From an uncultured Peptococcaceae bacterium (lineage in GTDB: Bacteria > Bacillota > Dehalobacteriia > UBA7702), in the NCBI GenBank assembly GCA_964637365.1, contig CAZWWH010000001.1, positions 132,269 to 196,268 on the forward strand: a stretch of 64,000 nucleotides of DNA. Reading direction: 5' to 3'. Position 1 is the first letter of the stretch; every line of letters begins with the position of its first letter. This document shows, piece after piece, positions 31-27,805 of this stretch. The position numbers and the translations under genes were made by a program. The notes under the pieces are model-generated. The model worked only from the letters and a program-made list of their open reading frames with translations. It was not told the DNA's origin and did no database searches.

Positions 31-981
31 GTGCAAAAAATAAAAGTCAAAGAACCTAAAAAAATCATGGGCTATCTTGCCGCCATCGTCTCTTCCATCC
101 TTTTTGGAATGATGGCGATTTTGGTAAAGCTCGCTCTAAAAACCGGGCTTGATCCTTTTGATGTGGTTTTCTTCCGCTTTTTCTTCACTTCCTTTATCAT
201 TGCCATTTATGTACTGGTACGCCGCATCAACTTAAAGCTGCAATGGGCGCAAATTTGGCGGATCATCTTTTTGGCCCTGGTAGGATATGCCGCCATGAAC
301 ATCACCTACTACACGGCCTTTGACCGTATGCCGGTATCCCTCGCCGGTATGATGCACTATATCTATCCCGTGGCCGCGGTAGTCATTGGTCGGGTTATAT
401 TTAAGGATCATATTGGCAAAGAGTGCTATTTTGCCGTGGCACTGGCGGTTGGCGGCGCCATGCTCCTTTCCTTCGGTGATTTTCAGGCCTTGGACGCCAT
501 TGGCATCCTTTGCGCTTTGCTTTCCGGGATTCTTTACGGCCTTTACGCTGTGGGACTGGGGCGCCCCGCTTTGGCGGATTTAGACAGTTGCGCCATTGTC
601 TTTTATCTTTGTGTATTCAGCACATTGTTCTTAGGAGGTTTCGAGGCTATTCGGGGAGTCAATCCTTTTGGGATACTCACAACCAAGGGACTCCTTATTA
701 TGCTGGCCAACGCTTTCTTCTGCACCGGCTTTGCCATGATGATTTTCCGAAAGGCCATTGTGTCTGTAGGAGCCGTTCCTACTACCATTCTTTCCACTTT
801 AGAACCAATTACCGCCGCAGGTTTGAGTCTTATTTGTTTCCATGAAACGTTCAATTTTTTGATGATTATGGGTTCCGCTCTGATCTTAATTGCCGTAATT
901 CTAACGGTAAAACCACCAAAGCAAAAAGATACATCGGCGCCATCCCAGGAGGAGGAACAAACAACCGTTACCCACACATAA
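31..981 (+). CDS. EamA/DMT-family drug/metabolite transporter (10-TM permease)
   Basis: 316-aa highly hydrophobic ORF with two tandem EamA-like halves (GxxxALxxG..FFRF motifs); true start may be the M at 67. Confidence 0.65.
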   Translation: MQKIKVKEPKKIMGYLAAIVSSILFGMMAILVKLALKTGLDPFDVVFFRFFFTSFIIAIYVLVRRINLKLQWAQIWRIIFLALVGYAAMNITYYTAFDRMPVSLAGMMHYIYPVAAVVIGRVIFKDHIGKECYFAVALAVGGAMLLSFGDFQALDAIGILCALLSGILYGLYAVGLGRPALADLDSCAIVFYLCVFSTLFLGGFEAIRGVNPFGILTTKGLLIMLANAFFCTGFAMMIFRKAIVSVGAVPTTILSTLEPITAAGLSLICFHETFNFLMIMGSALILIAVILTVKPPKQKDTSAPSQEEEQTTVTHT

Positions 982-984
982 AAA

Positions 985-1022
985 GCAGCGGAGACGTTTT
1001 TTTAGTCTCCGCTGTTTTTTTA
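985..1022. terminator. bidirectional rho-independent terminator between convergent genes
   Basis: perfect 10-bp stem CAGCGGAGAC/GTCTCCGCTG (986-995/1005-1014) with a 9-nt U-rich loop, followed by T7 and preceded by A4. Confidence 0.7.
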
Positions 1023-1027
1023 TTAGC

Positions 1028-3118
1028 TTATTGTACTGTAGGTAATTTGGAGAAATCAGCTTTTTTATCTTTTCCCCAGAATTTGCCCAGCAATGATTTT
1101 TGTTTTTCTTGTACCACACGGTTTTTTGGACGGCCAACCGCAACGATTTCAATATGGCACTCAATGTGGAGGTGGGCGCCGCTCCCCTCTCTTCCCACTT
1201 TGGAATCCTTCCGATCCACCAAAACTTCATAGTCGTTCATTCCCTGAAGCTGCATTTCCACAGTCATTCTCTTTTTGCCCTCTTGAATCGCCAATTCAAT
1301 GGCCGTCTCCATGGGAGTTCGTTCCCCGATTTCGTCCTTATGCTCCGAAGGCTTAAAGTGACTTTTGCCCCAAGGCGCATAAACCTCGATACCGGAAGTA
1401 TCATGATTCTGAACCAAAATACGGTAAATGTTCATGACCTTCCCCGCCGCAGCTCCCACAGCGTTTGCCACTCCGTGATGGGATGGAAATATCGCGTCAG
1501 TATGGAGCTTTTCGCAGGCGGCAGGCAGCCAGAATTCCGTGGGAGCGCCAATGCCGACGACGGGAAGGGACAGAGAAATGTCGGTGGAGACCAAAGGCCC
1601 CTGCTTTTTGCCAAAGGAATTTTCTAAGAAATATTCCATGACCGTTTCTTTGGCAAAGGGATTTAAATCCTTCTTCTCATAAGTCCACATACTATCCAGA
1701 ATGACACGGTACATCTGCTCAGTCATGGCCTGCTTCAGCGTTTCCGTCAGCTCCGACAGCTGAAAATGGTGGGTTTGAGCAACCAAATGAGCAGCCAGAG
1801 TCCCCGCTTCTTGAGAACCGATTTCACATTCTCCCGCAAAATGGAGAAGATCAGTGGGCGTAAAACCTACGGTCCCCAAAATTCCATGATCCACCAAAGG
1901 TTCTATAGATAGAAAATTGGGATTCGTTTCCAAACAGCGGCTGATTTCCACCAGCGTATGGGGGGCTTCCTTCACAATTTCTATGACCTTCCGTTGTTCC
2001 TCGGTGAGCTCTGTATGAGGAGAAGGATGATGCAAGAGCAGATATCCCTCTACAGCCTCATGCCCCAAAAGCCCCACCGGGGAAAGAGAAATCTGTTTCA
2101 ACTCATCCAAATAATGGGGATACTGGCGGCAAATTACTGACACCGGCCAGCTGCGGCGCGGACCGATGCGCCATTCTCTCGTTGTATCGTCATAGCAAAT
2201 ATGACTGTCTCCTCCCAACCCAAAGGTAGTGGCCTCCACAGCAGAAACCCGTGTATGCCAACCGCCGACCTTGGCGCCGTTCTCATCGAGGCGCGGCAGC
2301 CCTTGGCGCAAAATCGCGATATCCGTGGTGGTGCCGCCCATATCAAGAACAATGCCCTCCCGCACGTCGCTTAAAAAAGTAGCTCCGATGATGCTGGCGG
2401 CAGGCCCCGACAGAATCGTTTCAATGGGACGTTCTCTGGCAACAGATTCGTTCATCAAGCTGCCGTCGCCTTTTACTACCATAATGGGAATATCTAATTT
2501 TTTTTCATCCAAAACCGTTCGGACAGCATTAAGAAGCTCATCAATGATATAGAGAAGACGGGCGTTCAACACCGCTGTAACGGTGCGCTCCTGCATACCG
2601 ATGACGGAACTCAACTCATGGGCTGCCACCACGGGGCATTTGAGGATTTTCCGCACCATTTCTTTGACGGTCTTCTCATGGGCGTCATTGCGGATGCTGA
2701 ATATTCCCGAAACAGCCACGGCGTCCACTTTATCCCGGAGGCTTTCAATTTCTTCCTTTATTTCTTCCAAATCAAGTGGTTCCGTTTCCTCCCCGCGGAT
2801 ATTATGTTTCCCGTGGAGAATGCGGTATTCACACTGGGGTAGTTCCGCTTTAGGAGAAAATCCCAGCAAAAGCAAGCCAACACGGCAGCCACGGCTTTCC
2901 ACAATGGCATTGGTGGCTAAGGTAGTGGATAATGCCAAATAATCCACTTGTTCCAACCAAGACTGTGGCAATTGATTAATGGTATTATGAATCCCAATCA
3001 TAAGGTCTTGATGGGTTGTGGACGACTTTGTTGACGCCAAAATTTCTTTTGTATCTAAATTGATGACGACGCCGTCGGTAAAAGTGCCGCCGGTATCAAT
3101 TCCTAAAACAATTGACAT
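1028..3118 (-). CDS. hydantoinase/oxoprolinase-family protein (HyuA-like ASKHA ATPase), 696 aa
   Basis: N-terminus MSIVLGIDTGGTFTDGVVI is the Hydantoinase_A_N signature; length matches HyuA-type proteins; no Cys cluster, so not a RamA-type activator; last gene of the mttB-paralog/BCCT operon. Confidence 0.55.
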   Translation of the reverse strand: MSIVLGIDTGGTFTDGVVINLDTKEILASTKSSTTHQDLMIGIHNTINQLPQSWLEQVDYLALSTTLATNAIVESRGCRVGLLLLGFSPKAELPQCEYRILHGKHNIRGEETEPLDLEEIKEEIESLRDKVDAVAVSGIFSIRNDAHEKTVKEMVRKILKCPVVAAHELSSVIGMQERTVTAVLNARLLYIIDELLNAVRTVLDEKKLDIPIMVVKGDGSLMNESVARERPIETILSGPAASIIGATFLSDVREGIVLDMGGTTTDIAILRQGLPRLDENGAKVGGWHTRVSAVEATTFGLGGDSHICYDDTTREWRIGPRRSWPVSVICRQYPHYLDELKQISLSPVGLLGHEAVEGYLLLHHPSPHTELTEEQRKVIEIVKEAPHTLVEISRCLETNPNFLSIEPLVDHGILGTVGFTPTDLLHFAGECEIGSQEAGTLAAHLVAQTHHFQLSELTETLKQAMTEQMYRVILDSMWTYEKKDLNPFAKETVMEYFLENSFGKKQGPLVSTDISLSLPVVGIGAPTEFWLPAACEKLHTDAIFPSHHGVANAVGAAAGKVMNIYRILVQNHDTSGIEVYAPWGKSHFKPSEHKDEIGERTPMETAIELAIQEGKKRMTVEMQLQGMNDYEVLVDRKDSKVGREGSGAHLHIECHIEIVAVGRPKNRVVQEKQKSLLGKFWGKDKKADFSKLPTVQ

Positions 3119-3150
3119 GAGACTCCTCCTGAAACATGATAAATTTCATA

Positions 3151-4695
3151 TTATTCCGCAGCATCTTTTTTGGCCTCGTTTGTTCCATTGGAACCATAAA
3201 GTCCCCTGACGGCCGAAAGCGCCAGTGCGATCATTAAGAACAGCAACGGGAACGAAGCCAATACCGCCAACATCTTTGTGCCATCAATGCCGGCAAAGCT
3301 TATCATTACCCAAGCCAACGAGCCCATAATGATGCCCCAAGCAAGCTTTAAAAATAGCGGCGGCTCCCCTTCCTCCTGTTGGAACCCACTGGTACTCATA
3401 ATAGCGGCCACAGAAGTCATGGAATCAGCCATGGTGACAAAAGAAATCACAATAATGACCAAAAATAGAATGACCAGGAAGGTGCCGAGGGGGAATTGAT
3501 CGAAAAAGGTAAAAACAGCACTTTCCAAACCGTTGGCCTCCAAAGCGCTCCAAAGGTCAAAGGTACCTTCCAACTGCATATGGATAGAGGTGCCTCCGAA
3601 TACGGTAAACCAAAGAATACCAAAAATTGCTGGTGCTACCAAATTTACTGCCAAAAACTGCCGTATCGTGCGGCCATAGCAGAGGCGGGTGAGGAATACC
3701 CCCACCACAGGAGCGTAAGCAATCCAGGACGCCCAATAGAAAATGCTCCACCAGCGGGACCAGTCCTCTCCAGTGGCGGCGCCAAGATACGTGGATTTAG
3801 CAAAAAAAGTGGTGATAAACTCACCAGTGCTTTCCGCACCCAGCTTCAAGATATAGGTGGTGGGACCTACAATGAGAATGAACAATAGCACGATGACGTA
3901 AAGCTTCAAATTCTGATCTGACAGCCACTTCAAACCCTTGTCCATCCCCACAGCGCTGGAAGCTGTAAAAAACAAAATAATGCAAAGAGCCACCATAGCC
4001 CAGACAAAGGGCGTGGGATCAATGCCTGTTACAAAATTCAAACCACTGGAAATCTGCATGATTCCCATACCCATGGAGGTAGCGATACCGCCAGCCAAGG
4101 AGAACAAGCAAACAGCATCGACCACAGTGCCGATTTTACCATGGCAACGGTCTCCCATAAGAAAATAGAGTCCGGAGCTGATGGTCATTTTCTGATGATA
4201 ATTGTAAACGGCCAAAGCAATAGGAATCGTGGCCGTAACATACAGGGCATAAGGAGTAAAAGACCAATGATGAAAAACAGTGGACATTGAAAACATAATA
4301 GCTTCAGCACTTTCCGGGGTAATGCCGTGAGCAGGAGCTTCTAAATGCTGGATAGGTTCGGCAACGCCCCAAAAGACAATGCCAATGGCAATACCGCCAC
4401 ACAGACTCATGGCAAACCATTGGATAAAAGTATATTTCGGTTTTGCCTCCTCCCCGCCAAATTTGATGCGTCCTGCGGGGCTGCAAAAAATCACAATACA
4501 AAGGAGCACAAACCCCAAAGCAACCAAAGCAAAAAGCCAATCAAATCCATCGGTAATCCATTGATAAGCCCCATTCATTGCTGCGGAAAACCCATCACCG
4601 CTGATAAAGCTGAAAATCACAGAACCCAATAACACCAAAAACGGCGGCCAGAAAACGGCATGATTGATTCTGTGTCCTTTGATAGAATTTTTCAT
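3151..4695 (-). CDS. BCCT-family (betaine/carnitine/choline) transporter
   Basis: 514 aa, 12 TM; N-terminal region and Trp-rich segments (WTVFYWASWIAYAP-like: WSIFYWASWIAYAPVVGVFLTR) typical of BetT/OpuD/CaiT transporters. Confidence 0.8.
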   Translation of the reverse strand: MKNSIKGHRINHAVFWPPFLVLLGSVIFSFISGDGFSAAMNGAYQWITDGFDWLFALVALGFVLLCIVIFCSPAGRIKFGGEEAKPKYTFIQWFAMSLCGGIAIGIVFWGVAEPIQHLEAPAHGITPESAEAIMFSMSTVFHHWSFTPYALYVTATIPIALAVYNYHQKMTISSGLYFLMGDRCHGKIGTVVDAVCLFSLAGGIATSMGMGIMQISSGLNFVTGIDPTPFVWAMVALCIILFFTASSAVGMDKGLKWLSDQNLKLYVIVLLFILIVGPTTYILKLGAESTGEFITTFFAKSTYLGAATGEDWSRWWSIFYWASWIAYAPVVGVFLTRLCYGRTIRQFLAVNLVAPAIFGILWFTVFGGTSIHMQLEGTFDLWSALEANGLESAVFTFFDQFPLGTFLVILFLVIIVISFVTMADSMTSVAAIMSTSGFQQEEGEPPLFLKLAWGIIMGSLAWVMISFAGIDGTKMLAVLASFPLLFLMIALALSAVRGLYGSNGTNEAKKDAAE

Positions 4696-4753
4696 ATTCT
4701 AAAACCTTCTTTCATGTTTCATTTCCAAAGAGCTTTTCGCGGAAAATGAGCTT

Positions 4754-4782
4754 GGAATGGGAAGCGCAACACTTCCCATTCC
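4754..4782 (-). other. intercistronic perfect hairpin (11-bp stem, 7-nt loop) between the methyltransferase paralog and the BCCT gene
   Basis: GGAATGGGAAG cgcaaca CTTCCCATTCC; no U-tract, so more likely an attenuator or processing/stability element than a full terminator. Confidence 0.5.
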
Positions 4783-4797
4783 AATATTAGAGATTGA

Positions 4798-6261
4798 TTA
4801 TTCGCCGATTCTTTTCTGGGCTTTTTCAAGAACTTCGTCTAATTTGGCGATTACATCGGCAGGAAGCTCAGGAACCTCATGTTCGGCCAAAAGTTTTTTG
4901 GTTCTTTCATGCATTCTGGTACGGAAGTCGGTGGGGTTTTCTTTCCATACATCATATCTCTGTCTGTCCATGAGGTTGGGGAACCAGAGTTCACTTTTGA
5001 AGTTTTCAAAAGTGTGCATATGAGTGATGTATTCACCGCCAGGACCAATTTCTTTGATTACATCAAGAGCAAGTTTTTCGGGAGTGATTTCCACGCCACG
5101 GCGGATGCGGCGGGCATAACCGATGGCTTCGTCAGCCATGGTGATGAGGTCGAGGTGGGAGGCGGCGGCGGATTCCATGAATCCCACGTCATGAACGAGG
5201 TTGCCACCGGAGAGGCAGTTTACGAGAGAGGTAAATGCGCATTCCAAAGCGCACTGCTCGTCAACAACTTTGGAGTCGGAGGCGCAGGCCGTTTCCCAGC
5301 AGGGAAGGTCGAGATAATGATAGATATCAGCGACTAAGCTTTCACCGAGGCAGTGTTCGGGAGTACCGTAAGCAGCCTGAGTGGTGTTCATATCGACGGT
5401 CAAGGTTACGCAGGTGGCAACATAGCCGTTACCAGGACGTACAGACTGGCTCAGTACGAGACCGGCGAGGTTTTCCGCAATACCGAGGGTGATGGAGCCG
5501 GCGATGGTCATGGGCGATACGCAGCCGAGCTGTACACCGGAGGGCCAGAGAACGGTCATGCCGCGTTCCGCACAATATACGTGCTTGCGGGCAGCGTCCG
5601 CAGGAACAGTAAGGGGAGTCACAGGATCGCCAGCATAGCAGATGGCGAAGGGTTTTTCAAGGAAAGCTTCCCAGCTGCCTCTTACGGCTGCCATCATTTC
5701 GAACTGTTCTTCCAGACCTTCTACATCAACGCCCCAACAAACGATGGGCTTGGTGGTGTTCTGAAGCATTTCGTGCATTTCGCAGGTATCGGCGATGAGA
5801 GGGTTCCAGTCACGGATACCGGCCAGGGACATGATAAAGTCGATATTGGGAAGAGCGTCGGAAAGTTTTGCGCTGTTGGCAACGTCGCTCTTTCTTGCTT
5901 CACGTCTTTCATAGGTTTCAAAGTCATAGTAGAAGGGATTTGTGGGACCATTGCCAAAGTAGGTGTTGTTGCCGCCTACATCCATGGCATGTTCACCGAA
6001 ACGGTTGTAAACCTGAATATGAGAGGGAGCGGTGCTGATCGCTTTTTTAACGAGTTCTCTGTCGACAAAAACTCGGTTGCCTTCGACGCGGCAGCCATAT
6101 TTTTCCATATAATCACGGGCGCCGGGATCCATGATGTCGGTACCAACTTCTTCAAGAATTTCGAATGCACCGTTAAGAATCAATTCGATCTGTTCTTCGG
6201 TTGCCACATGATAACGCATTACGTTTTCTTTGTAATGGGAGGTGATGCCTTCAATTGCCAT
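4798..6261 (-). CDS. MttB-superfamily methyltransferase without pyrrolysine (quaternary-amine:corrinoid methyltransferase, MtgB/MtcB/MtpB-like)
   Basis: 487-aa uninterrupted ORF homologous along its whole length to the Pyl-containing mttB at 62622-64000; the residue aligned with Pyl is Cys (…ETAC-ASDSKVVDEQ…); operon with BCCT transporter. Confidence 0.85.
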   Translation of the reverse strand: MAIEGITSHYKENVMRYHVATEEQIELILNGAFEILEEVGTDIMDPGARDYMEKYGCRVEGNRVFVDRELVKKAISTAPSHIQVYNRFGEHAMDVGGNNTYFGNGPTNPFYYDFETYERREARKSDVANSAKLSDALPNIDFIMSLAGIRDWNPLIADTCEMHEMLQNTTKPIVCWGVDVEGLEEQFEMMAAVRGSWEAFLEKPFAICYAGDPVTPLTVPADAARKHVYCAERGMTVLWPSGVQLGCVSPMTIAGSITLGIAENLAGLVLSQSVRPGNGYVATCVTLTVDMNTTQAAYGTPEHCLGESLVADIYHYLDLPCWETACASDSKVVDEQCALECAFTSLVNCLSGGNLVHDVGFMESAAASHLDLITMADEAIGYARRIRRGVEITPEKLALDVIKEIGPGGEYITHMHTFENFKSELWFPNLMDRQRYDVWKENPTDFRTRMHERTKKLLAEHEVPELPADVIAKLDEVLEKAQKRIGE

Positions 6262-6339: not shown

Positions 6340-6355
6340 TGCAAGGAGCGTGCCA
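6340..6355 (-). promoter_or_regulatory. sigma-54 (-24/-12) promoter driving the mttB-paralog/BCCT/hydantoinase operon
   Basis: minus strand reads TGGCAC-GCTCC-TTGCA, an exact match to TGGCAC-N5-TTGCW, about 80 nt upstream of the start at 6261; divergent from the sigma-54 activator gene. Confidence 0.8.
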
Positions 6356-6550: not shown

Positions 6551-6594
6551 AAACAATGTAAATTTTTTGCTTACGAAATTTGGGAGCGGAAACT

Positions 6595-8082
6595 ATGGAA
6601 TTAAAAATCACCAAAAAAATTTTGTTTGAGATCATTGAACACCTCAAAGAAGCCGTCTATATCGTAGACGCCCAAGGGAAGGTTGTCTATTTAAACGATG
6701 CAGCTTCCGAGCTGGAACAGATGCCGAAAAAGGATTTTCTGGGGAAAACCATTGCCGATGTTTACTTTAACACAGAATTTCATTCTCACAAAAACTCCCC
6801 TTGTCTCGACGTCTTAGCCAGCGGTGAAGTACAGGAAAACGAAAACCTGGAATGGTACACCGCCGACGGTACCACCATTAATGCCATCACCAATACCTTT
6901 CCCATCATGGAAAACGGTGAGATATTAGGGGTATTTTCCATGGCGGAAAATATCGCGGACCTGAAAAAGCGCCTCATTGAAATAGGAGCCTTTCCCCGAA
7001 AGCAAACCTACCGCATGAAAAAGAAAACCCTCCATAACGGCACCTCTTACATTTTTGATGACATCATCGGCGAAAGTGACGCCCTGCAAAGCACCATCAC
7101 CATTGCCCGGCGGTTTGCCGCCAAAAAGCTGCCGGTCATGATATACGGTGAAACAGGAACCGGGAAAGAGATGTTCGCCCAAAGCATTCACAACGCCAGC
7201 TCCTCGGTGGCAGGCCACTTCATCCCCGTGAACTGCGCCGCCATCCCAGAGAATCTGCTGGAAAGTATCCTCTTCGGCACTGTCAAAGGAGCCTTTACCG
7301 GGGCCATTGACAGTGTGGGGCTTTTAGAGAAAGCGGAAAACGGCTCTGTTTTCTTAGATGAAATCAACTCCATGCCCATTGGCCTGCAAGCAAAAATCCT
7401 TCGAGCGTTACAGGAAAAGGAGGTACAGCGCATTGGCGACAGCAAAACGAGAAAGATCAACTGCCGAATTATCAGCGCCACCAACAAGCTGCCTGCGGAA
7501 GCCATTCGTGACGGAGAAATGCGGGAGGACTTATTCTACCGGTTATCAACTGGGATGATTCTCATCCCACCACTGCGGGAGCGGGGCAATGATTTTGAAC
7601 TCCTGGCAGACTATTTCATCGCAAAGTGTAACGAGGAAATTGACGCCACCGTGACGGCTATGTCGCCGGAGCTGAAAAATCTTTTAAAGACATACTATTT
7701 CCCCGGTAATATCAGAGAGCTTGCCAATATCATTGAAAGTGCCATGAATATGACCATTGAAGGAGAAAATATCCTGGACCTGCGGCATCTTCCCACCTAT
7801 CTGAAAAACCATTTCAAAGAGGAAATTTCCGCCATGCCCAATGCGGAGCAGGTCTTTCAAAGGCATAGTCCCCAAAGCCACAAAAATGTCCCTCAAATGG
7901 ACTTCCATGGCAATCTCAATACCATGATGGCAGAATACGAGAAGGGCCTGATTGAACTCGCTTTGGCCAGCACTCAAGGAAATCTCACCAAATGCGGGGA
8001 AAAGCTGGGGATCACCCGTCAGAATCTCACCTTTAAGATGAAACGGCACAATATTGATTTAAAAAAATTCAAACGCAGATAG
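6595..8082 (+). CDS. sigma-54-dependent transcriptional activator (PAS sensor - AAA+ - HTH)
   Basis: GETGTGKEMFAQSIHNAS Walker A, GAFTGA motif (GAFTGAIDSVG), ESILFG, C-terminal Fis-type HTH, N-terminal PAS-like domain; ATG at 6595 has a GGAG RBS (the ORF track starts at an upstream TTG, 6580). Confidence 0.85.
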   Translation: MELKITKKILFEIIEHLKEAVYIVDAQGKVVYLNDAASELEQMPKKDFLGKTIADVYFNTEFHSHKNSPCLDVLASGEVQENENLEWYTADGTTINAITNTFPIMENGEILGVFSMAENIADLKKRLIEIGAFPRKQTYRMKKKTLHNGTSYIFDDIIGESDALQSTITIARRFAAKKLPVMIYGETGTGKEMFAQSIHNASSSVAGHFIPVNCAAIPENLLESILFGTVKGAFTGAIDSVGLLEKAENGSVFLDEINSMPIGLQAKILRALQEKEVQRIGDSKTRKINCRIISATNKLPAEAIRDGEMREDLFYRLSTGMILIPPLRERGNDFELLADYFIAKCNEEIDATVTAMSPELKNLLKTYYFPGNIRELANIIESAMNMTIEGENILDLRHLPTYLKNHFKEEISAMPNAEQVFQRHSPQSHKNVPQMDFHGNLNTMMAEYEKGLIELALASTQGNLTKCGEKLGITRQNLTFKMKRHNIDLKKFKRR

Positions 8083-8151: not shown

Positions 8152-9612
8152 TTATTTTACGCGGTCTTCTGCCCGGGCCAAAATCGCATCAAGGCGGGCC
8201 ACTACTTCCTCGGGCAAAGCAGGTACCTGGTGCTCAGCCAAAAGGCGTTTTGTTTTTTCGTGAACGCGAGTACGCATATCCGTAGGATTGTTGATCCAAG
8301 ATTGGTAGCGGCTGCGATCCATCAAAGTAGGCTGCCACAGCTCCTTCTTAAAGTTCATGAAAGTATGCTCGTTGGTGAGGAATTCACCGCCGGGGCCGAC
8401 GGCTTTGATAACGTCATAAGCCAAGGTATCATCAGAAATTTCGATACCTCTAGTGATGCGACGGGCATAGCCGATGATTTCATCACACATGACGATCTGA
8501 TCCAAGGAGGCGGACATAGCGCCATCAATAAAGCCCACGTCATGAACGAGATGGCCACCGCTCAAGGCGTTGGACAAGATTTGCATGGACGATTCAATGG
8601 CAGCTTGTTCATCCACTACCTTAGCTTCGGTGACACCGCCGGTTTGGAACATCGGTAAATTGAGATAATGGAAAATATCAGCAATGGCGCTTTCCCCCAG
8701 GCAATGCTCAGGGCTGCCATAGGCCGACTGGGTGGTAGCCATATCCACAGCTAGAATCACAACACCCCCCACAAATACGCTGCCTCTTTTTAACAGCTGG
8801 GACAAAACAAGGCCAATGAAAACCTCAGCCAACCCCATGGCTAAGCCTGCGGCAATGGTTACAGGAGAAGTCGAGCCCAGTTGGGGGCCGGTGGGCCAAA
8901 TGATAGGCAAACCGGCTTCAATGCCACACTCTAATTTATCAAAATTACTGGTATCAATGACTAAAGGCGTTACAGGGCAGCCGGGGAAAATGGCAACAAA
9001 GGGCTTTTCACGCAATTTATCCATACCGCCGGCGACTTCAGCACACATTTCAATTTCATCTTGGAAGCTTTCCACTGTGGTACCCCAAGCCACAAAGGGT
9101 TTTGTGGTATTTTCCAAAATTTCGCGTACTTCTACAACGTCAGCAACATCGGGGTGGCAATCGGAAATTCCAGCGAGGCCCATAATAAAGTCGATGTTGG
9201 GGCAGGCATCGGAAATCCGGGCGTTATTGGCCACGTCTTTACGGAGACCTTCGCGGCGTTCCCCGGTTTCAAAATCGTTGTACATGGGATTAGTGGGGCC
9301 ATTGCCGTAGTAGTTGTTAATACCGCCGGCACGAATGACTTCATTGCCCATGCGGTCGTAAAGCACCATTTCCGAAGGAGCCGAAGCAATGCATTCCTTT
9401 ACAAGGCTGGCAGGGACTTTGACGATGTTATCCTCCGCCGCACAGCCAGCTTTAACCAAAAGCTCAATGGCTCTGGGATTTTTAATCATCATCCCGGTAT
9501 CCTCCATGATATGGAGAGCGGCTTCAATAATTTTTTCACATTCGGCTTCGGTCAAAGCCTGATAGCGAGATTTGTTAACGTGGTAGTAAGATTGAATACC
9601 TTTGATCGACAT
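8152..9612 (-). CDS. MttB-superfamily methyltransferase without pyrrolysine (second paralog)
   Basis: 486 aa, about 50% identical to 4798-6261; the Pyl-equivalent position is Val (…MFQTGGV-TEAKVVDEQ…). Confidence 0.85.
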   Translation of the reverse strand: MSIKGIQSYYHVNKSRYQALTEAECEKIIEAALHIMEDTGMMIKNPRAIELLVKAGCAAEDNIVKVPASLVKECIASAPSEMVLYDRMGNEVIRAGGINNYYGNGPTNPMYNDFETGERREGLRKDVANNARISDACPNIDFIMGLAGISDCHPDVADVVEVREILENTTKPFVAWGTTVESFQDEIEMCAEVAGGMDKLREKPFVAIFPGCPVTPLVIDTSNFDKLECGIEAGLPIIWPTGPQLGSTSPVTIAAGLAMGLAEVFIGLVLSQLLKRGSVFVGGVVILAVDMATTQSAYGSPEHCLGESAIADIFHYLNLPMFQTGGVTEAKVVDEQAAIESSMQILSNALSGGHLVHDVGFIDGAMSASLDQIVMCDEIIGYARRITRGIEISDDTLAYDVIKAVGPGGEFLTNEHTFMNFKKELWQPTLMDRSRYQSWINNPTDMRTRVHEKTKRLLAEHQVPALPEEVVARLDAILARAEDRVK

Positions 9613-9676
9613 ATTTCATTCTCCTTTTTTGTTTTGTCGCAAACAAGTCGTGTCGTGTTTTTCACAAGTATGTAAA

Positions 9677-9692
9677 CGCAAAACCCGTGCCA
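9677..9692 (-). promoter_or_regulatory. sigma-54 (-24/-12) promoter of the second mttB paralog
   Basis: minus strand TGGCAC-GGGTT-TTGCG, about 65 nt upstream of the start at 9612. Confidence 0.75.
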
Positions 9693-9759
9693 AAACCCAT
9701 ATTTTTTCCACGATTCTTTTTCGCTACATATAGATATGGAATAAAGGAGTCAATAACTG

Positions 9760-9910
9760 ATTCTATAGGCGTCATGTAAATATTTATTGCCGCAATAAAT
9801 ATTTCATCTATAAAAAATCGCAATAAAAATTGCTACTTCGGCACAAACTATTTTTGACAATTTTCATTGCCTATTCAGGAAAAACGACATTTTTATTGCG
9901 CAATATTTCT
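9760..9910. promoter_or_regulatory. candidate activator-binding palindromes
   Basis: TTTATTGCcGCAATAAA (perfect 8+8 palindrome), AATCGCAATAAAAATTGCTA and ATTGCGCAAT; same TTGC-N-GCAA theme as at 6480-6550. Confidence 0.45.
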
Positions 9911-9987
9911 TGCGGTATGCTTTTTGCATATATCATATTAACAAAGAGGCACAAAGCATAAACCAAACCGAGAAAGGAGGAAACTCA

Positions 9988-11466
9988 TTGAGAAAAGTAA
10001 TGAATGAATCGCTGCTGCTGGATATCATTGAGCATTTTCATGCCGCAGTCTACATTGTGGATAAAGACGGAAATATGGAATACCTAAACAGTGCAGCCAA
10101 ACGCATGGACCGCCTTACCGATAATGTCATTGGCAAAAACTTATCGGAAATTTATTACAATACAGTTTTCCAGGAAGGCATGAACTCCCCCTGCTTAGAC
10201 ACCCTCAAAACAGGAAATGCCCACATTTACGAAAATTTAGAGTGGTATCTCAAAGACGGTACTACGGTCAACGCCATTACCAGCACTTATCCCATTATCA
10301 AGGAGGGAGAAATCCAGGGTGTATTTGCCCTGTCCGAAGATGTCAATCAATTAAAAAAGTTCCTGATAAAAAATGGTGCTTTCAAACAGAAATTGTCCTA
10401 CCGTTTCCGCAATAAGACCATGAAAAACGGTACTCAATATGTGTTCAACGATATCATTGGGGAAAGCGAATTGATGAAAAATACCATTATGATGGCTCGG
10501 CGGTTTGCCGCCAAAAAGCTGCCGGTAATGATATACGGCGAAACCGGTACCGGTAAAGAAATGTTCGCACAGAGCATCCATAATGCCAGCCCCTATGTGG
10601 CCGGGCCTTTTATTCCCATCAACTGCGCGGCCATTCCCGAAAACCTGCTGGAAAGTATGCTTTTCGGCACTGTCAAAGGAGCCTTTACCGGCGCCCTGGA
10701 CCATGCTGGACTTTTTGAAAAGGCCGAGGGCGGTTCCGTGTTTCTCGACGAAATCAACTCCATGCCCATGTTGCTCCAAGCAAAGATCCTCAGGGTTCTC
10801 CAAGAAAAGGAAGTGCAGCGCATTGGCGATAGTAAAACACGAAAAATCAACTGCCGCATCATTAGCGCTACCAATCAATTACCCACTGAAGCCATCCGCT
10901 CTAACAGCCTGCGTGAGGATTTATTTTACCGTTTATCCACCGGCATGGTCTGGATTCCTTCCTTGAAAGAACGCAGCGAAGATATCTCCCTTTTGGTAGA
11001 TTATTTTATGGAAAAGGCCAATGCGGAATTGGATACCACCATCCTCTCCATTTCACCAGAGCTGGACCATTTGTTCCATGCCTATGACTGGCCGGGTAAT
11101 ATCAGGGAACTGTCCAATGCCATAGAAAGCGCCATGAACATGACGCTGGATGGGGAAACCGTACTGGACCTGCGACATCTACCCACTTACTTAAAGCGGC
11201 ACTTTAGCACGGAATTGATGGGAATGCCCAATGCAGAGGAGGTCTTCTCCGTACGAAACGAGTCCATGGACAACCCTGCGCCCATGCTCCACCTTCATGG
11301 CAATATCAATGAAATGGTAGACGCTTACGAAAAAGAGCTGATTCAATTCGCTTTACGCGCTACTAGGGGCAACCTTTCCAAGGCTGGGGAAAAACTGGGA
11401 ATCTCTCGCCAAAGCCTTTCTGTAAAACTGAAAAAGCATTGCATTGATGCAAAAACTTTTAAATAA
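9988..11466 (+). CDS. sigma-54-dependent transcriptional activator (PAS - AAA+ - HTH), paralog of 6595-8082
   Basis: the same motif set (GETGTGKEMFAQSIHNAS, GAFTGA) and about 65% identity to the first activator; likely TTG start at 9988 (GGAGG 7 nt upstream) or ATG at 10000. Confidence 0.85.
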   Translation: MRKVMNESLLLDIIEHFHAAVYIVDKDGNMEYLNSAAKRMDRLTDNVIGKNLSEIYYNTVFQEGMNSPCLDTLKTGNAHIYENLEWYLKDGTTVNAITSTYPIIKEGEIQGVFALSEDVNQLKKFLIKNGAFKQKLSYRFRNKTMKNGTQYVFNDIIGESELMKNTIMMARRFAAKKLPVMIYGETGTGKEMFAQSIHNASPYVAGPFIPINCAAIPENLLESMLFGTVKGAFTGALDHAGLFEKAEGGSVFLDEINSMPMLLQAKILRVLQEKEVQRIGDSKTRKINCRIISATNQLPTEAIRSNSLREDLFYRLSTGMVWIPSLKERSEDISLLVDYFMEKANAELDTTILSISPELDHLFHAYDWPGNIRELSNAIESAMNMTLDGETVLDLRHLPTYLKRHFSTELMGMPNAEEVFSVRNESMDNPAPMLHLHGNINEMVDAYEKELIQFALRATRGNLSKAGEKLGISRQSLSVKLKKHCIDAKTFK

Positions 11467-11545
11467 TAAAGAATCAACGGCTATAGGCCCCAAATCATCA
11501 GTATTCGATCCTCTCATTCAAATATTTTTATCACATGATAGTTTT

Positions 11546-11561
11546 TGGCATAAAATTTGCA
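11546..11561 (+). promoter_or_regulatory. sigma-54 (-24/-12) promoter upstream of the MFS transporter gene
   Basis: TGGCAT-AAAAT-TTGCA (GG-N10-GC spacing preserved) about 190 nt upstream of the ATG at 11754. Confidence 0.6.
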
Positions 11562-11753
11562 ATATTATATTGACAAATGTCGTGAACAATAAAAAAATCG
11601 TCTGTCGTGAACCATGCAATTATTCCAAATTCGTTTTATCATCTTTTCAAAACGACTCAGAAAACGGGAATCAATGAAACATTTTCATACAACTGAATAA
11701 TGAATTTTCATCTTAATTTGGACTTCTTAATAAAGAATTAGGAGGCATATTTT

Positions 11754-13013
11754 ATGAGTAAAAAAGGATTAAACCGCTGGTTTGTTTTATTCATCTTATC
11801 TCTGGCCTGCGGGCTGATTTATCAACTGCCCTACCTTCGTTATAGCTATTATGATTCCATGATCGTTGCCTTTAACGTCACCAATACCCAGTTGGGGACT
11901 TTCATGACTGCCTTTGGTCTTGGTTCTCTCGTATGCTATCTCATCGGCGGCGTACTGGCCATGAAGTTTTCCGATAAAGCCTTGCTTCCCTTAGGACAAA
12001 TTCTCACAGGGGCTGCGGGACTCTGGTTTGCAACCTTTCCTTCTTACGGCATCTGCCTGTTCATCAGTTTCTTCTGGGCCTTTTCCACTTCTCTGATTTT
12101 CTGGCCCGCAGTTATCAATTTTGTCCGCGGCATGGGCGACTCCAAAGAACAAGGACGTCTATATGGTCTTTTTGAAGGGCTCCGCGGCATCACCGCCACC
12201 ATCATTGGTCTCGGCATTGTAGCGCTTTTCAACGGCGCCTTAAGTGAAACCGCGGGACTCCGCACCGTAATCCTGGCCTATGCCATCATCAATATCGTTC
12301 TTGGGATTATCACCTTCTTTGTAGTACCCAACAACAAAGAGGAAAAGAAAGCACTCAGTGCTGCCAGTGGCGAACAACTATCTCTTGGAGCGGGGTTTAT
12401 GAAAGCCCTGAAGCTCCCCATTACCTGGATTGCTTCGGGCATCGTGTTCTGCACCATGATGGTATTTGACTGTCTCGGTTATACCACGCCTTATCTCACC
12501 GGCGTGATGGGCGCCACCGTTGTATTTGCCGCCACCTTCGGCACCATCCGCACCTGGGGGCTTCAAATTGTCGGCGGTACCTGCGGCGGTATCATTGCCG
12601 ATAAAATCGGTTCCTCTGCCAAAACCCTGATCGGCGCTTTCGTCGTCATCGGCATAGGATTTGCCGCTTTGGCCTTGCTTCCTGCCGGCTCCTTCTGGGT
12701 TGCCACTATTTTGATCCTGGTGTTTGGTATCGCGATTTACGTCAACCGCGGCGTTTACTTCGCGGTTCTGGACGAAGCCAAAGTCCCTGCCAGCATCAAC
12801 GCTGCTGTGGTCGGCATCGTATCCGCCATTGGCTTTACCCCTGATGCTTTCATTTACACTGTCATCGGCTATTGGCTTGACAAATATCCCGGCGCCACCG
12901 GATATCAAATCACCTTTTGGTGCGGCACCATCTGCGCTGCAGTCGGGGTAATTCTCTCCATTATCGCAGTAAAAGTAATTAAAAACAACAAATCCAAAGT
13001 TACATCCGAGTAA
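11754..13013 (+). CDS. MFS transporter
   Basis: 419 aa, 12 predicted TM segments, two MFS-like halves; GGAGG RBS. Confidence 0.75.
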   Translation: MSKKGLNRWFVLFILSLACGLIYQLPYLRYSYYDSMIVAFNVTNTQLGTFMTAFGLGSLVCYLIGGVLAMKFSDKALLPLGQILTGAAGLWFATFPSYGICLFISFFWAFSTSLIFWPAVINFVRGMGDSKEQGRLYGLFEGLRGITATIIGLGIVALFNGALSETAGLRTVILAYAIINIVLGIITFFVVPNNKEEKKALSAASGEQLSLGAGFMKALKLPITWIASGIVFCTMMVFDCLGYTTPYLTGVMGATVVFAATFGTIRTWGLQIVGGTCGGIIADKIGSSAKTLIGAFVVIGIGFAALALLPAGSFWVATILILVFGIAIYVNRGVYFAVLDEAKVPASINAAVVGIVSAIGFTPDAFIYTVIGYWLDKYPGATGYQITFWCGTICAAVGVILSIIAVKVIKNNKSKVTSE

Positions 13014-13096
13014 CACTCATCGAAGCGACATTTTCTTTGCCCAAAAATCTGTTTCTACTTAGCAAAAAAATAACAACCTTCCCATATGTTCTCTTC

Positions 13097-13135
13097 AAAA
13101 AAAAGCCATTGGAATTTTCTCCAATGGCTTTTTCT
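13097..13135. terminator. bidirectional rho-independent terminator
   Basis: AAAAAGCCATTGGA-attttc-TCCAATGGCTTTTT, perfect 11-bp stem flanked by A/T runs. Confidence 0.75.
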
Positions 13136-13136
13136 T

Positions 13137-13868
13137 CTATGGTATTTGCTTTTCTTTCGTATGGTAATCAATATTCGCTTTTCGGGCCTGGGAACAAAGG
13201 TCTTTCACTCCTAAAGTATACTGTTTGCCGTCTTTGATAAAATGGGTACCGCATTGGCGAAATTCAAAGGAAACCCCGTGGGCCATACATTGTTCTCGAA
13301 TACCCAGCACCCAATCGTAATGAAGGGGCCGGGCAAATCGGTCCGACTCTCCTCCCACTACCACAAGGTCGATGCCATCCAGAAACGATTCCAGATTCAC
13401 GGCGCCAATCAAGGGCTGGCAGATAATATTTCTATGTTTGATAGGCAAGGAGGAAAAAATGGAAAGCCGTTCCACGGCTTTGGCCTGATTTTCCACAGTG
13501 CAGCCCACGGTCACATTATCGTAGCCATCCCCCCAGTCCTTGGGAACGCAGTCCATAAAACGATGAATGCGCTTGGTTAGGAAAAGGAAATCTAAATCGG
13601 GGCGTTGTTTCATCATGGCCCAACAGTCATCGCGCCAGGGATCTGCCTCATCCAACAAAAAATCCGAAGAAAAACAAAGATAGACCCGCTGATGGGGCTT
13701 CATTTTATATTGGCCGTTTTTCAATTTTACAATAGGAGCGTCAAACTGAGGGGTTTTTACAATTTGGGAGGTATCAATCTTGCGCTTAGCGTCGCCTTTG
13801 TGAATGTAACAAAACTTGCATCCCTCACTGAAACGGCGGCAGCCCCGCCAAGGATTCCACATTGCCAT
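13137..13868 (-). CDS. phage Gp37/Gp68-family protein (DUF5131)
   Basis: N-terminal MAMWNPWRGCRRFSEGCKFCYIH matches the WNPxxGC…SxGCxxCY signature of the family. Confidence 0.7.
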   Translation of the reverse strand: MAMWNPWRGCRRFSEGCKFCYIHKGDAKRKIDTSQIVKTPQFDAPIVKLKNGQYKMKPHQRVYLCFSSDFLLDEADPWRDDCWAMMKQRPDLDFLFLTKRIHRFMDCVPKDWGDGYDNVTVGCTVENQAKAVERLSIFSSLPIKHRNIICQPLIGAVNLESFLDGIDLVVVGGESDRFARPLHYDWVLGIREQCMAHGVSFEFRQCGTHFIKDGKQYTLGVKDLCSQARKANIDYHTKEKQIP

Positions 13869-14170
13869 AAATATTCCACCCTTCCGCTAGATACCATTAT
13901 AACAATCATCATAGGAAATAGATACCCATCTCAAACAAATTCGGTTTAATTCCTCAGGCGTCCATGACAGAAACAGCCGGAGATGGTATAATAAAAGAAA
14001 CGCAGCGTTGTTTCCATATATATATATTTGAAATCAAAGGTGCTGCTATCGATATCTTTATTTGAGTTTTTATATCAACGCGGTATAAAAGAGAGGTGGT
14101 ATACTGTGAAGCTCTGCATTGTTTAGCCGAAATAGTCTGTGAAACAATACGAAAATATAGGAGGCTTTTC

Positions 14171-14815
14171 ATGGCTATTTCGGGAATAAAAATTTATCCC
14201 CGCACAGAAGATAAAGAAACGATTTACTTAAAAAATGTTATCACAAACCCCAACATAATCGTTGGCGACTACACCATGTACAATGACTTTGTCAATGACC
14301 CAACCTTGTTTGAAAAAAACAATGTATTGTACCATTATCCAGTCAACAATGATAAACTTGTTATCGGTAAGTTTTGCTCCATTGCTTGCGGCACCCGTTT
14401 TCTCTTTAACAGCGCCAATCACGCATTATCTTCATTATCTACTTATCCATTTCCCATATTTTTTGAGGAATGGGGATTGAACGGAAAGGATGTAACCACG
14501 GCCTGGGATCATCAAGGAGACATTATCATAGGAAATGACGTATGGATCGGTTATGAAGCCGTGATTATGGCCGGGGTGACGATTGGAGACGGCGCAGTAA
14601 TCGGCGCCAGGGCATTGGTGACAAAGGACGTCCCTCCATACACCATTGTTGGTGGAATACCCGCTAAGCCCATACGAAAGCGCTTTTCGAAACAAACCAT
14701 TTCCAAACTGACGAAAATAAAGTGGTGGGATTGGTCCCCCCAGAAAATTACCCAAAACATTGATGCCATTCAAGCTGGCGACCTTGAAGCACTCTTGCGG
14801 CAGGTAAATATGTAG
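14171..14815 (+). CDS. vat: Vat-family streptogramin A O-acetyltransferase (xenobiotic acetyltransferase, hexapeptide repeat)
   Basis: YHYPVNNDKLVIGKFCSIACGTRF…NHA…STYPF…GDIIIGNDVWIGYEAVIMAGVTIGDGAVIGA…KIKWWDW motifs characteristic of Vat/Sat proteins; GGAGG RBS before the ATG at 14171 (the ORF track starts upstream at 14096). Confidence 0.8.
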   Translation: MAISGIKIYPRTEDKETIYLKNVITNPNIIVGDYTMYNDFVNDPTLFEKNNVLYHYPVNNDKLVIGKFCSIACGTRFLFNSANHALSSLSTYPFPIFFEEWGLNGKDVTTAWDHQGDIIIGNDVWIGYEAVIMAGVTIGDGAVIGARALVTKDVPPYTIVGGIPAKPIRKRFSKQTISKLTKIKWWDWSPQKITQNIDAIQAGDLEALLRQVNM

Positions 14816-19395: not shown

Positions 19396-21374
19396 TCACC
19401 GAAGCTGATATTTTTTTATCTTTTTATATAATGTAGATTTTCCCATATTCAGCATTTTCGCCGCCTGGGCCACGTCATGATCCGTAGCCGTCAGGGCTTT
19501 TTGAATGGTTTCTATTTCCGCATCCCGGATTGGGTCTGGGGAAATTAGAGATTTAGACGGCGCGATTGACGTAGAGAATACGTCATCGGGAAAATTTCCG
19601 GGAACGATCCATTCGCCATTACCGGTAGTTACCGCATAGACAACGGCCTTTTGCAGTTGGCGCACATTACCGGGCCAATCACCATGAAGCAAAATGCTTT
19701 TCGCCTCAGAACTCAGTCGGGGTACCTGCCACTGCATTTTGCCGCAGTACTCCTGAATAAAGTGCTCTGCCAATAAAACGACGTCGTCATCGCGTTCCTT
19801 CAATGGTGGAATGACAATTTTCAATGCAGAAAGACGGTAATATAAATCTTCACGGAACAGGCGTTTCCGCACAAGCTCTTGTAAATCCTGATTGGTGGCG
19901 GCGACGAGACGGAATTCCACGTCAATGTACTTATCGCCGCCAATTCGCATCACCTGATGATTTTCTAAAACCCGTAGCAGCACCGCCTGCACCTCATAAG
20001 GCATGTCCCCAATTTCATCTAAAAACAAGGTGCCCCCTGGGCCAGCTCAATTTTTCCGGGGCGGCCCTTCCGCTCGGCACCGGTAAAGCTGCCGCCCTCA
20101 TATCCCAACAGCTCACTTTCCACCAAATTTCGAGGCATGGAGGCGCAGTTTAACGCGATAAAAGGGCCGTGGGGCCGTGAGGCGTTGTGGATCGCCTGGG
20201 CAAAAATTTCTTTGCCAGTACCGCTTTCCCCTAAAATCAATACATTTTCAAAGGAGGAGGCAAAGCGCATAGAGATATCCTTAGCTTTCACAATGGAGGA
20301 ACTTTCTCCGAGAATATCCTGGAACGTCAGAGTCGCAGTATTATGATTTCTTTGGGCAATGTAGCTGTCAATTTGTTTCGGGTCACTGATACGGATTACC
20401 ATACTGTCGGAAACATCGGCCTGCTCCCCCATAATGGGTCTTAGGCTGAACAGGTAGTTTTTATCTCCCTCCGGCAGAAGCAGTGTATCCTCTAAATTAT
20501 TAACGTTGGCTTGAAGCGACAGCATATGCTTTAACGGCGAATTCTCTCGAAGAAATTCACAAAGGTTGTACTGACGTTCCGAATCCTCCTTGATGCCAAG
20601 GATATTAATGCTTTTTCGATTAGCTTTCAAAATTTTCCCGTGATTCTCCGCCAAAACAATACCTTCATCCATAAAAGTAAGGGTGGCCTCCAGCATTTGA
20701 TTGGTCTTGCGGAGCTCCTCGTTCCGCTTTTTGATTTCCATTTGCTGACCTATGGACAAGGCCATGGAGGACGTCCAGCAAAGAGCATTGATTTGATCCC
20801 GATGATATTCCGTGGTCCAGTATTCCTCCGGCATTAATCGGGCCAAGGCAATGATCCCGACACTCTGCCCCTTTCCATCGAGAATCGGCGCTGCCGACAT
20901 TGTGGTCGGCTGCATGGTATCGTGAAAATTCTCCGGGCCGTTGGTTTGCACGGGACAGCCGTAGCGGAGAGCCAGCATGGTTGCGGTAGTTCCCAGATAC
21001 TCATCTTTCGAGGAAGATGCGATATACTCCGCACCGGAGTCCGTCACAGGGAATCCCTTATTGGCAATGATAGTGAAGTAGGATTTATCCTCCGGGCTGT
21101 TAAAGAAGCAAAGCAAATTCAAATCCCGATCAAATAAAATCACAATAAGGTGGGAAATGGCAAAAAGCTCCATAATTTCATCGGTAATCATTGCCTTTGT
21201 AGTCTCTATCAGCAATTTATTTTTTTGAAAAAGATAATTATTCTGTTCCACACTGGGATCTGGCGGAAAAAGATCCTGATATGGGTGGATGCCATAGGTA
21301 AAGGAGCGCTCCCATGACAGGGCTATTTCCTCCCGAATCAGGGGATTCCCCGAGGGACGAATTCCTTTTTCCAC
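19396..21374 (-). pseudogene. sigma-54-dependent activator (GAF-PAS-AAA+-HTH, AcoR-like) disrupted by a -1 frameshift
   Basis: ORFs 20019-21374 and 19396-20028 are the N- and C-halves of one activator; the break is at a C5/G5 homopolymer (20033-20037). Restoring one G gives …GKIELAQGGTLFLDEIGDMP…, the canonical activator sequence. Confidence 0.75.
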
Positions 21375-22139
21375 ATAATCCCTTTTCGCCCGTTCCAGTA
21401 TTGTACCGGATATGCGCCGTTCAAGGTAAAAGGCAAAGCCATCACTTGCCGAAAATATGCCGCAAGGATCAACCGCAAAGAATATGCCAATGCCAACCCC
21501 ATTATTCGCCTTTACAAAAACCGTTGCTCGGCACTACGTATGGAACGCAAACGTGGTAAGCACGACGATGTACTAATAAATGCCGCCCTTGCCGTTGCCA
21601 AAGAGCGTATGCAACGGGCAAAGAACGATCCCGATTATGCCAACGGACAGTATGAAGCAGATATACTTCGTGAAGAACTCTACGCCGAAGCGGACAGACG
21701 ATTAAACGGCAAATAACACAGATTGGAGGTGAGTGCCGTGAAAGAAAAGTATATTGACGAAAAGGAACTGAATATGTACCGCATCCAGCTGGCACCGCCG
21801 AAGTGGGATTTACAGGAATATATTGTGACCTATCTGAAAGAGCAAGATGACCGAACGAATGATGCTCGCCCAGCGGCTTGGTTTCTGTTTTGATTGCCAC
21901 AGCATATTTTATATGGATTATGACGATTTGGATGAATACGGTGATCCGAAAAAGAAACCAATCAAGCCAATGATGTATACCGATATTGCCACCGACCACG
22001 AATACAGCTCCGCCAATACCGCACACAAAAATGTGAAAAGGCACTTGCTAAACTAAAAGAAACCATAAAAGACTTGATATAACGAAAAAAGCCCCGTTAG
22101 AAATGCAGAATTTACTGCGCTCCCAACAGGGCAATTTAT

Positions 22140-24314: not shown

Positions 24315-24325
24315 AGTGTACCTCC

Positions 24326-24997: not shown

Positions 24998-25026
24998 AAT
25001 ACTTACTCCTTATAATTTTTATTATT

Positions 25027-25698: not shown

Positions 25699-25798
25699 CT
25701 TTTCACTCCTTTCTCATTTAGCTTCATAAAAAAGCCTCCTGTACTTGATAGCATCATTGTACAGGAGGAAGATTGAAGTTTGATTGAAGATTATTAAA

Positions 25799-27728: not shown

Positions 27729-27805
27729 AGCGATACCTCCGCTTATTATCATTATACCATAAAAGATTGAAAAATGATTGAAGTATTTGAAAAACGGCGG
27801 CTCGG

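Follow-up and report, generated by a model that had tools for sequence, protein, structure and literature searches.

Why should a HyuA-type ATPase be encoded together with an MttB-family methyltransferase and a transporter for quaternary amines? The question is raised by a 64,000-nucleotide stretch from an uncultured Peptococcaceae bacterium (GenBank assembly GCA_964637365.1, contig CAZWWH010000001.1, positions 132,269 to 196,268), called the window below, in which three minus-strand genes follow one another in the order MttB paralog, BCCT transporter, and a 696-amino-acid HyuA-type protein with the working name Hyd. An earlier note on this DNA gave the same order at the same coordinates, and its overall observation is real, with only small corrections of coordinates needed; its suggestion that Hyd hydrolyzes a ring before or after demethylation is unsupported, since no HyuB subunit was seen, glycine betaine, the one substrate tied to the family by experiment, is acyclic, and some homologs occur in corrinoid clusters that lack MttB. 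A tentative answer, and the one preferred here, is that Hyd may be an ATP-driven accessory factor that keeps a corrinoid component functional, in the same process as proteins with the domain DUF1638. Homologous loci and proteins are cited, where needed, by the labels of a homolog survey (L0xx and P0xxx).

The operon and its HyuA-type protein

The three genes of the operon are:

1028-3118, minus strand: Hyd, a 696-amino-acid HyuA-type ASKHA ATPase with no HyuB partner
3151-4695, minus strand: BCCT-family quaternary-amine transporter, 514 amino acids (PF02028, E 2e-139)
4798-6261, minus strand: MttB1, a non-pyrrolysine methyltransferase I of the MttB superfamily, 487 amino acids (PF06253, E 1e-83)

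Hyd is a genuine but divergent HyuA-type protein, with ATPase activity predicted from its motifs. Pfam detects Hydant_A_N at residues 5-158 (E 7e-32) and the first half of Hydantoinase_A at residues 178-321 (E 5e-30), and there are no Pfam matches in residues 325-696. The AlphaFold model (39 homologs; pLDDT 85, pTM 0.81) matches HyuA-type subunits over most of its length and has the full-length HyuA architecture, including the C-terminal half. The ATP motifs DTGGT, DMGGTTTD, and GGDS, placed by profile alignment to 6yra_A, are invariant in the family, and about 20 catalytic-looking residues (E148, H167, R178, K216, D218, and others) are conserved across all of its HyuB-less members. Hyd shows the full-length similarity to A1 members and the residues E177, R290, W530, and W583 that mark its clade; in the tree it groups with the copies from L001, L002, and L090, beside those of Dehalobacterium, Formimonas, Syntrophaceticus, and Desulfocicer. 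Two features are peculiar to the window copy: residues 666-696 (1028-1120) form a Lys/Arg-rich C-terminal tail of 30 residues that homologs lack and that is modeled with a pLDDT under 50, and position 431 is Cys in place of the Tyr seen in 37 of 38 close homologs. Together with W287, W530, and W583, Y431 was considered as a conceivable aromatic cage for a quaternary amine.

The known HyuA-type subunits, namely N-methylhydantoinase A, the alpha subunit of 5-oxoprolinase/caprolactamase, the beta subunit of acetone carboxylase, and the alpha and gamma subunits of acetophenone carboxylase, are 14-25% identical to Hyd, which differs from them in having HyuB neither adjacent nor fused, in its setting in corrinoid methyltransferase clusters, and in a second Hydantoinase_A half and C-terminal domain that escape Pfam. 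Against the NCBIfam equivalogs (caprolactamase alpha, Apc alpha or gamma) Hyd scores 118 versus 1000, 83 versus 1500, and 52 versus 1250 bits, about one tenth of the cut-offs, and it belongs to none of them. RamA, RACE, and RamQ are, like Hyd, ASKHA-type ATPases found in or near corrinoid methyltransferase clusters, but Hyd has no Fe-S or RACo/DUF4445 domain and coexists with RACE in some clusters. The earlier note had preferred a HyuA-type to a RamA-type identity, and the Pfam search agrees: matches to RACo/DUF4445, Fer2, and Fer4 are absent from Hyd, and a RamA/RACE identity was rejected. RACo (3zyy) resembles the model only as a generic ASKHA match, and one Hyd cysteine, C78, is semi-conserved. 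GlmL/MutL was also considered and rejected. GlmL is a hydantoinase-branch ASKHA protein that has no HyuB and serves the B12-dependent glutamate mutase, but only its first 50-100 residues align, it has 462 amino acids to the 696 of Hyd, and its client is an adenosylcobalamin enzyme. The hhalign probability against GlmL of E. coli O157 is 6.8%, and Pfam MutL (PF13941) reaches 34.5 bits over residues 5-55 only, where the NF040745 cut-off is 475.

MttB1 is classed as non-pyrrolysine because its open reading frame has no internal stop codon, and it aligns end to end with MtgB (2qne). The betaine-binding residues of MtgB are Y97, R312, H348, and F356, with R312 binding the carboxylate (PMC13080624); the aligned residues of MttB1 are P, W, H, and A, so that H348 alone is kept. 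At 218 bits against MtgB, MttB1 falls under the NCBIfam cut-offs, and its substrate is probably something other than glycine betaine. MttB genes immediately 5' of Hyd form their own clade. The cargo of BCCT transporters is quaternary ammonium compounds; the BCCT protein of the operon scores under the NCBIfam betaine equivalog cut-off.

The control elements of the operon are:

978-1014, minus strand: intrinsic terminator closing the operon, a 10-bp GC stem with a U-run (-22.8 kcal/mol, z = -6)
6341-6355, minus strand: sigma-54 -24/-12 promoter TGGCACgctccTTGC, an exact match, also kept in L001
6484-6544: three GCAAA-N5-TTTGC palindromes between the operon and the divergent activator gene, candidate activator-binding sites
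6580-8082, plus strand: divergent sigma-54 enhancer-binding protein with PAS, AAA+, and Fis-type helix-turn-helix (HTH) domains (Sigma54_activat E 2e-62; HTH_8)

The sigma-54 control proposed in the earlier note is supported by this promoter, which lies just outside the interval then given and about 80 nt 5' of the MttB1 ATG. The features expected of a sigma-54-dependent operon are present together: a TGGCAC-N5-TTGC promoter, an adjacent enhancer-binding protein (its true ATG is likely near 6595, from a reading of the sequence), and upstream palindromes. Exact matches to the promoter motif number only two in the 64 kb, the other (9678-9692) lying ahead of a second MttB gene, and by our own estimate about 0.1 would be expected by chance. 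The promoter is conserved, and similar palindromes are present, in L001, a syntenic locus that comes from a metagenome of the human gut. The MttB1, BCCT, and Hyd genes most likely share one transcript, to judge from the layout, since no promoter-like site was found on the minus strand between 3118 and 4800, that is, between the MttB gene and Hyd. The BCCT stop codon is separated from the Hyd ATG by 32 nt, with an AGGAGG ribosome site inside the spacer, and the operon's only strong terminator is that at 978-1014, which is shared with a convergent EamA gene (31-981, plus strand). The best explanation of the locus is a sigma-54-controlled operon for quaternary-amine uptake and demethylation. The scanned open reading frames of the window include no corrinoid protein or methyl-tetrahydrofolate methyltransferase (B12-binding, Pterin_bind), no RamA/RACE activase, and no HyuB; the corrinoid protein and the methyl-tetrahydrofolate methyltransferase must be encoded elsewhere.

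Genomic company of the Hyd family

The family is large: a profile search returned 15,411 representatives at E <= 1e-3, of which 2,431 reached E <= 1e-30. In the homolog survey, 97 loci were examined, and linkage means an MttB gene, a corrinoid protein (CoP), or a methyl-tetrahydrofolate methyltransferase (MTII) nearby, as found by a survey with hidden Markov models. The linked loci were, by similarity to Hyd:

At least 430 bits (38% identity or more): 9 of 11 distinct loci, with the linked gene within 6 kb
350-420 bits: 9 of 20 distinct loci
Under 350 bits: 12 of 58 distinct loci

Counted over the genes that adjoin Hyd on its own strand in 80-plus loci, the most frequent Pfam families were MTTB (8), Pterin_bind (8), and B12-binding (7). 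The arrangements include:

Dehalobacterium formicoaceticum: MttB-MttB-Hyd-BCCT
Ca. Formimonas warabiya (L006): CoP-MttB-CoP-MttB-Hyd-MTII-MttB-BCCT-BCCT
Syntrophaceticus schinkii: MttB-CoP-MttB-Hyd-MTII-BCCT
Desulfocicer niacini: BCCT-CoP-MttB-MttB-Hyd-BCCT-MTII
A Bacillota metagenome-assembled genome: CoP, Hyd, and MttB

The cognate corrinoid protein and MTII are present in related loci (L006, L088, L089). Some clusters combine Hyd with corrinoid proteins and no MttB: the order CoP, Hyd, URO-D-type methyltransferase occurs in L022, L061, and L065, with a RACE activase next in the latter two, and in L032 the same genes (CoP, Hyd, URO-D methyltransferase, RACE) are set around an MttB. A B12-binding radical-SAM gene is directly 5' of Hyd in L018. 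In L070 (4311-9224), a class-III aminotransferase and a shortened Hyd homolog (562 amino acids, 48% identical in the ATPase half) are followed, 5 nt on, by a 593-amino-acid protein with a C-terminal mutase-like B12-binding domain (DAHTYG); here the Hyd homolog may serve as the dedicated accessory protein of a B12 enzyme. The link between Hyd and corrinoids is independent of substrate type. A different HyuB-less branch is followed by malate synthase G in L034, L040, L056, L066, L078, and L087 (~12000-14300), and some of these loci have, between the two genes, a translationally coupled one for a 222-amino-acid protein that matches no Pfam family.

The earlier note had held that such an ATPase is part of no described betaine demethylation locus. 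This is wrong, as the cluster of Holland et al. 2022 holds a protein (P0106, in L006) that is 42% identical to Hyd over its full length. That protein, Ga0180325_114738 of Ca. Formimonas warabiya (668 amino acids), was entered as "?" and "Unknown" in a cluster induced by glycine betaine (PMC9768040, Table 2, Fig. 5); its log2 fold change of -7.20 denotes higher levels on glycine betaine, and it was co-induced with methyltransferase components (PMC9768040). Syntenic clusters were drawn for Sporomusa ovata and Ca. Frackibacter with the gene labeled "HydA", and no function was proposed (PMC9768040). Full-text searches found no other paper discussing this protein. The Hyd-type gene is therefore not new to betaine loci; it has been noticed once in the literature and never explained. 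The Formimonas and window proteins share a clade, and in Formimonas the gene directly follows MttB in a cluster with BCCT transporters; that cluster also contains CoPs and MTII, whereas the sigma-54-controlled operon of the window has only MttB, BCCT, and Hyd. To our knowledge, the characterized Mtg, Mtc, Mtp, Mty, and Mth systems have all been reconstituted without a Hyd-type protein. Further leads in the literature are MAP of Methanosarcina barkeri and the "hydantoinases" MA4395/MA4396, neighbors of mtaCB2 in M. acetivorans.

A second association comes from gene fusion. Among the 150 best representatives of the family, eight are fusions 915-959 amino acids long, in which an N-terminal DUF1638 (E 1e-36 to 1e-42) is joined to a complete Hyd:

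Fusion proteins: P0177, P0218, P0225, P0235, P0243, P0261, P0269, and P0271 (loci L094 and L095)

One of them is 34% identical to the window Hyd over 669 amino acids, and the eight form a single clade nested among methyltransferase-linked clades. The fusions and some close stand-alone Hyd copies (L007, L090, L094, L095) are found among housekeeping genes. The invariant residues of DUF1638, H36, C68, H88, D89, and C90 in P0177 numbering, suggest a metal- or cofactor-binding site. The split B12-dependent methionine synthase of Phaeobacter inhibens requires both DUF1638 and a RamA-like protein, a pair with a common phyletic pattern across the Alphaproteobacteria (PMC5764234); in Ruegeria pomeroyi, DUF1638 is induced together with RamA on N-osmolytes (PMC12478193). 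Compared with the DUF1638 and RamA-like system of Price et al. 2018, DUF1638 is here fused to the Hyd family, implying a shared process, but there is no DUF1638 gene in the window and the genetics come from Alphaproteobacteria, not Firmicutes. A separate DUF1638 gene near Hyd was found in only one fetched locus (L033), 7 kb off. Of two planctomycete DUF1638 genes that stand alone, neither has Hyd as a neighbor; one of them, in L097 (5885-7759), directly follows a URO-D (MtaA-like) methyltransferase gene at 46 nt and is itself followed by Metallophos, and the order DUF1638-Metallophos-MntP is seen again in L096.

Possible roles of Hyd

If Hyd is an accessory factor of the corrinoid component, it would work without a HyuB subunit and would maintain that component by activation, cofactor loading, or repair; its clade keeps company with methyltransferase systems that depend on corrinoids. 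In favor of this role are the lack of HyuB, the corrinoid neighborhoods that recur across substrate types, and the co-induction of the Formimonas protein with methyltransferase components (PMC9768040). It would act beside the RamA/RACE reductive activase, not replace it, and would leave the amine substrate untransformed. The fusion to DUF1638 ties the Hyd family to upkeep of the corrinoid cofactor and not to one substrate, and housekeeping settings are what would be expected of a general cofactor-maintenance factor. A wider proposal, for which our confidence is lower, is that the HyuB-less HyuA clade and DUF1638 could together constitute a previously unrecognized ATP-dependent corrinoid-maintenance system distinct from RamA/RACE. 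Such a system would serve MttB-type and other B12 methyltransferases, and in the fusions the His/Cys-containing DUF1638 would be coupled to the ATPase within one polypeptide.

Several observations weigh against a role in corrinoid maintenance. Residue conservation across the whole HyuB-less family looks like that of an enzyme family, Hyd bears next to no resemblance to GlmL, the accessory protein of a B12 mutase, and all characterized HyuA proteins known to us phosphorylate small molecules. Genuine RACE activators share a cluster with Hyd in four loci (L019, L032, L061, L065), and Hyd is therefore not a simple RACE substitute. Other branches of the family adjoin malate synthase G, asparagine-synthase-like, or MFS genes with no B12 gene near, and B12 genes are not enriched among the second neighbors of methyltransferase-unlinked homologs. 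The possibility that the associated corrinoid proteins are unusual and need a special loader was rejected, as 17 of 17 small corrinoid proteins carry DxHxxG and are ordinary.

In the principal alternative, the amine, once imported, would be phosphorylated or modified in another way by Hyd at the expense of ATP, or Hyd would recycle a product phosphoryl group, and MttB1 would demethylate the modified, acidic form, as in MthK/MthB of Eubacterium limosum. In that organism MthB demethylates only phosphocholine, which the choline kinase MthK, encoded with it, produces (Jiang et al. 2025, PMC12155760); this was called the first case of substrate modification ahead of MttB demethylation (PMC12155760). 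Both MthK and Hyd use ATP and are co-encoded with an MttB-family methyltransferase, but the fold of MthK is unrelated, being described as related to serine kinases, and its action on the substrate is proven. HyuA subunits are small-molecule phosphotransferases, and the invariant ATP site and many invariant catalytic-looking residues of Hyd would suit such chemistry; so would the loss from MttB1 of three of the four MtgB betaine-binding residues, R312 being replaced by Trp, the separate clade formed by MttB genes directly 5' of Hyd, the coexistence of Hyd with RACE activators in four clusters, and the position of some homologs beside transporters only (MFS in L024, L026, and L079; OpuAC in L041). 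This alternative has to be taken seriously, although we rate it as less likely than corrinoid maintenance. The Formimonas member, the one with experimental data, is induced on glycine betaine, and MtgB-type demethylation needs no ATP-dependent modification (PMC9768040); homologs also occur in corrinoid clusters with neither MttB nor a transporter (L061, L065); housekeeping genes surround both the DUF1638 fusions and the closest copies that stand alone; and the fusion points to handling of a cofactor, not of a substrate.

A narrower variant of corrinoid maintenance would make Hyd an Fe-S-free replacement of the RamA/RACE ATPase module, driving the conformational step from Co(II) to Co(I) with electrons delivered by another carrier, which could be DUF1638 by way of its conserved His/Cys site. 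It is improbable, being weakened by the co-occurrence of RACE and Hyd in the four clusters, which are more distant ones, by the need of P. inhibens for both the RamA-like protein and DUF1638 (PMC5764234), and by the single semi-conserved cysteine of Hyd. Least credible, to the point of being very improbable, is the reading of Hyd as the ATP-dependent subunit of a genuine ring-opening hydantoinase or lactamase with an N-methylated cyclic substrate, HyuB being encoded elsewhere. The HyuA fold does extend over the full length and the ATP motifs are intact, but the scores against the NCBIfam equivalogs are about a tenth of what is required and the C-terminal half has diverged beyond Pfam detection. 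HyuB is missing not only from the window, the part of this genome that was searched: Hydantoinase_B is absent from the families shown for 289 neighbor proteins at ~90 homologous loci, and HyuB was not found in 12 distinct loci with precomputed Pfam annotation or in the Pfam lists for L003-L007, L088-L091, L094, and L095, while every characterized HyuA gene of which we are aware is encoded beside HyuB or fused to it. The quaternary ammonium cargo of BCCT transporters also speaks against a ring as substrate, as does the response of the related Formimonas cluster to acyclic glycine betaine (PMC9768040).

The intercistronic hairpin, neighboring modules, and wider meaning

Between the first two genes of the operon lies a strong hairpin:

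4752-4784, minus strand: hairpin in the 102-nt MttB-BCCT spacer, with a perfect 13-bp stem and a weak U-tail GCUCAUUUUC

The earlier note had reported a perfect 11-bp hairpin at 4754-4782; the hairpin exists, but its stem is 13 bp and its limits are those above, with 15 pairs once the inner G-U is counted. The intergenic fold has an energy of -30.8 kcal/mol (z = -4.4), and 0 of 200 shuffled sequences folded as well. The hairpin is likely a partial terminator or a stabilizer of the 3' end. Strong GC-rich hairpins (z -3 to -6) also occur directly 3' of the MttB stop codon in five related loci, in the regions:

L001: 8316-8430
L004: 7885-8000
L006: 7870-8000
L088: 6915-7000
L089: 6892-7000

Across the five loci the position is conserved and the sequences are unrelated, which fits a device that keeps the MttB message more abundant than that of the genes downstream, either by terminating some of the transcripts or by protecting the 3' end. 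The idea that the hairpin sets the stoichiometry of the operon, also put forward in the earlier note, gains support from these loci and is a reasonable one. Hyd evolves much faster than MttB1, with 59% versus 93% amino acid identity to the L001 proteins; this rate and the place of Hyd downstream of a conserved hairpin fit a lower-dosage accessory protein. At the DNA level, MttB1 and the L001 copy (L001 6855-8315) are 81.5% identical; the co-operonic BCCT proteins share 72% identity and the activators 60-72%. Either the genes of this one operon are under very unequal constraint or the MttB gene was recently exchanged.

The window continues upstream of the operon with a second, separately regulated module:

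8152-9612, minus strand: MttB2, a second MttB paralog, with its own exact sigma-54 promoter at 9678-9692
9910-11466, plus strand: a second PAS-type sigma-54 activator, divergent from MttB2
11754-13013, plus strand: MFS transporter, with a sigma-54-like promoter TGGCAT-N5-TTGC at 11546-11560

Each MttB gene thus faces a divergent PAS-AAA-HTH activator, and the palindrome sets differ between the two intergenic regions. The gene set of 8152-13013 is also present in L001, in a different order. Another sigma-54 activator gene (19396-21374, minus strand) is split into overlapping open reading frames at 20019-21374 and 19396-20028, with its AAA+ domain cut at about position 95 of 168; the split probably reflects a pseudogene with a frameshift or an error in the sequence, and a sigma-54-like motif lies near it at 21475-21489. 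At 22140-27752 (minus strand), a trio of CotH kinase (724 amino acids), DUF4956, and VTC-domain genes stands beside a histidine kinase and response regulator pair.

Whether anaerobes of the gut and of sediments convert choline-, carnitine-, and betaine-type compounds to trimethylamine or to harmless products of demethylation is determined by systems of the MttB family. These systems are also under development as biocatalysts, and work in vitro relies on borrowed RamA/RamQ activases and chemical reductants. The wide occurrence of Hyd-type proteins, their strong induction in the one member studied, their recurrence in these clusters, and their fusion elsewhere to DUF1638, with its genetic tie to B12-dependent methionine synthase, suggest that the list of MttB system components is incomplete. 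Assigning a role to Hyd would give DUF1638 a function and would define how a HyuA-type ATPase acts without HyuB. If instead Hyd activates the substrate, it would represent a second and chemically different activation before MttB demethylation, and a new class of methyl donor.

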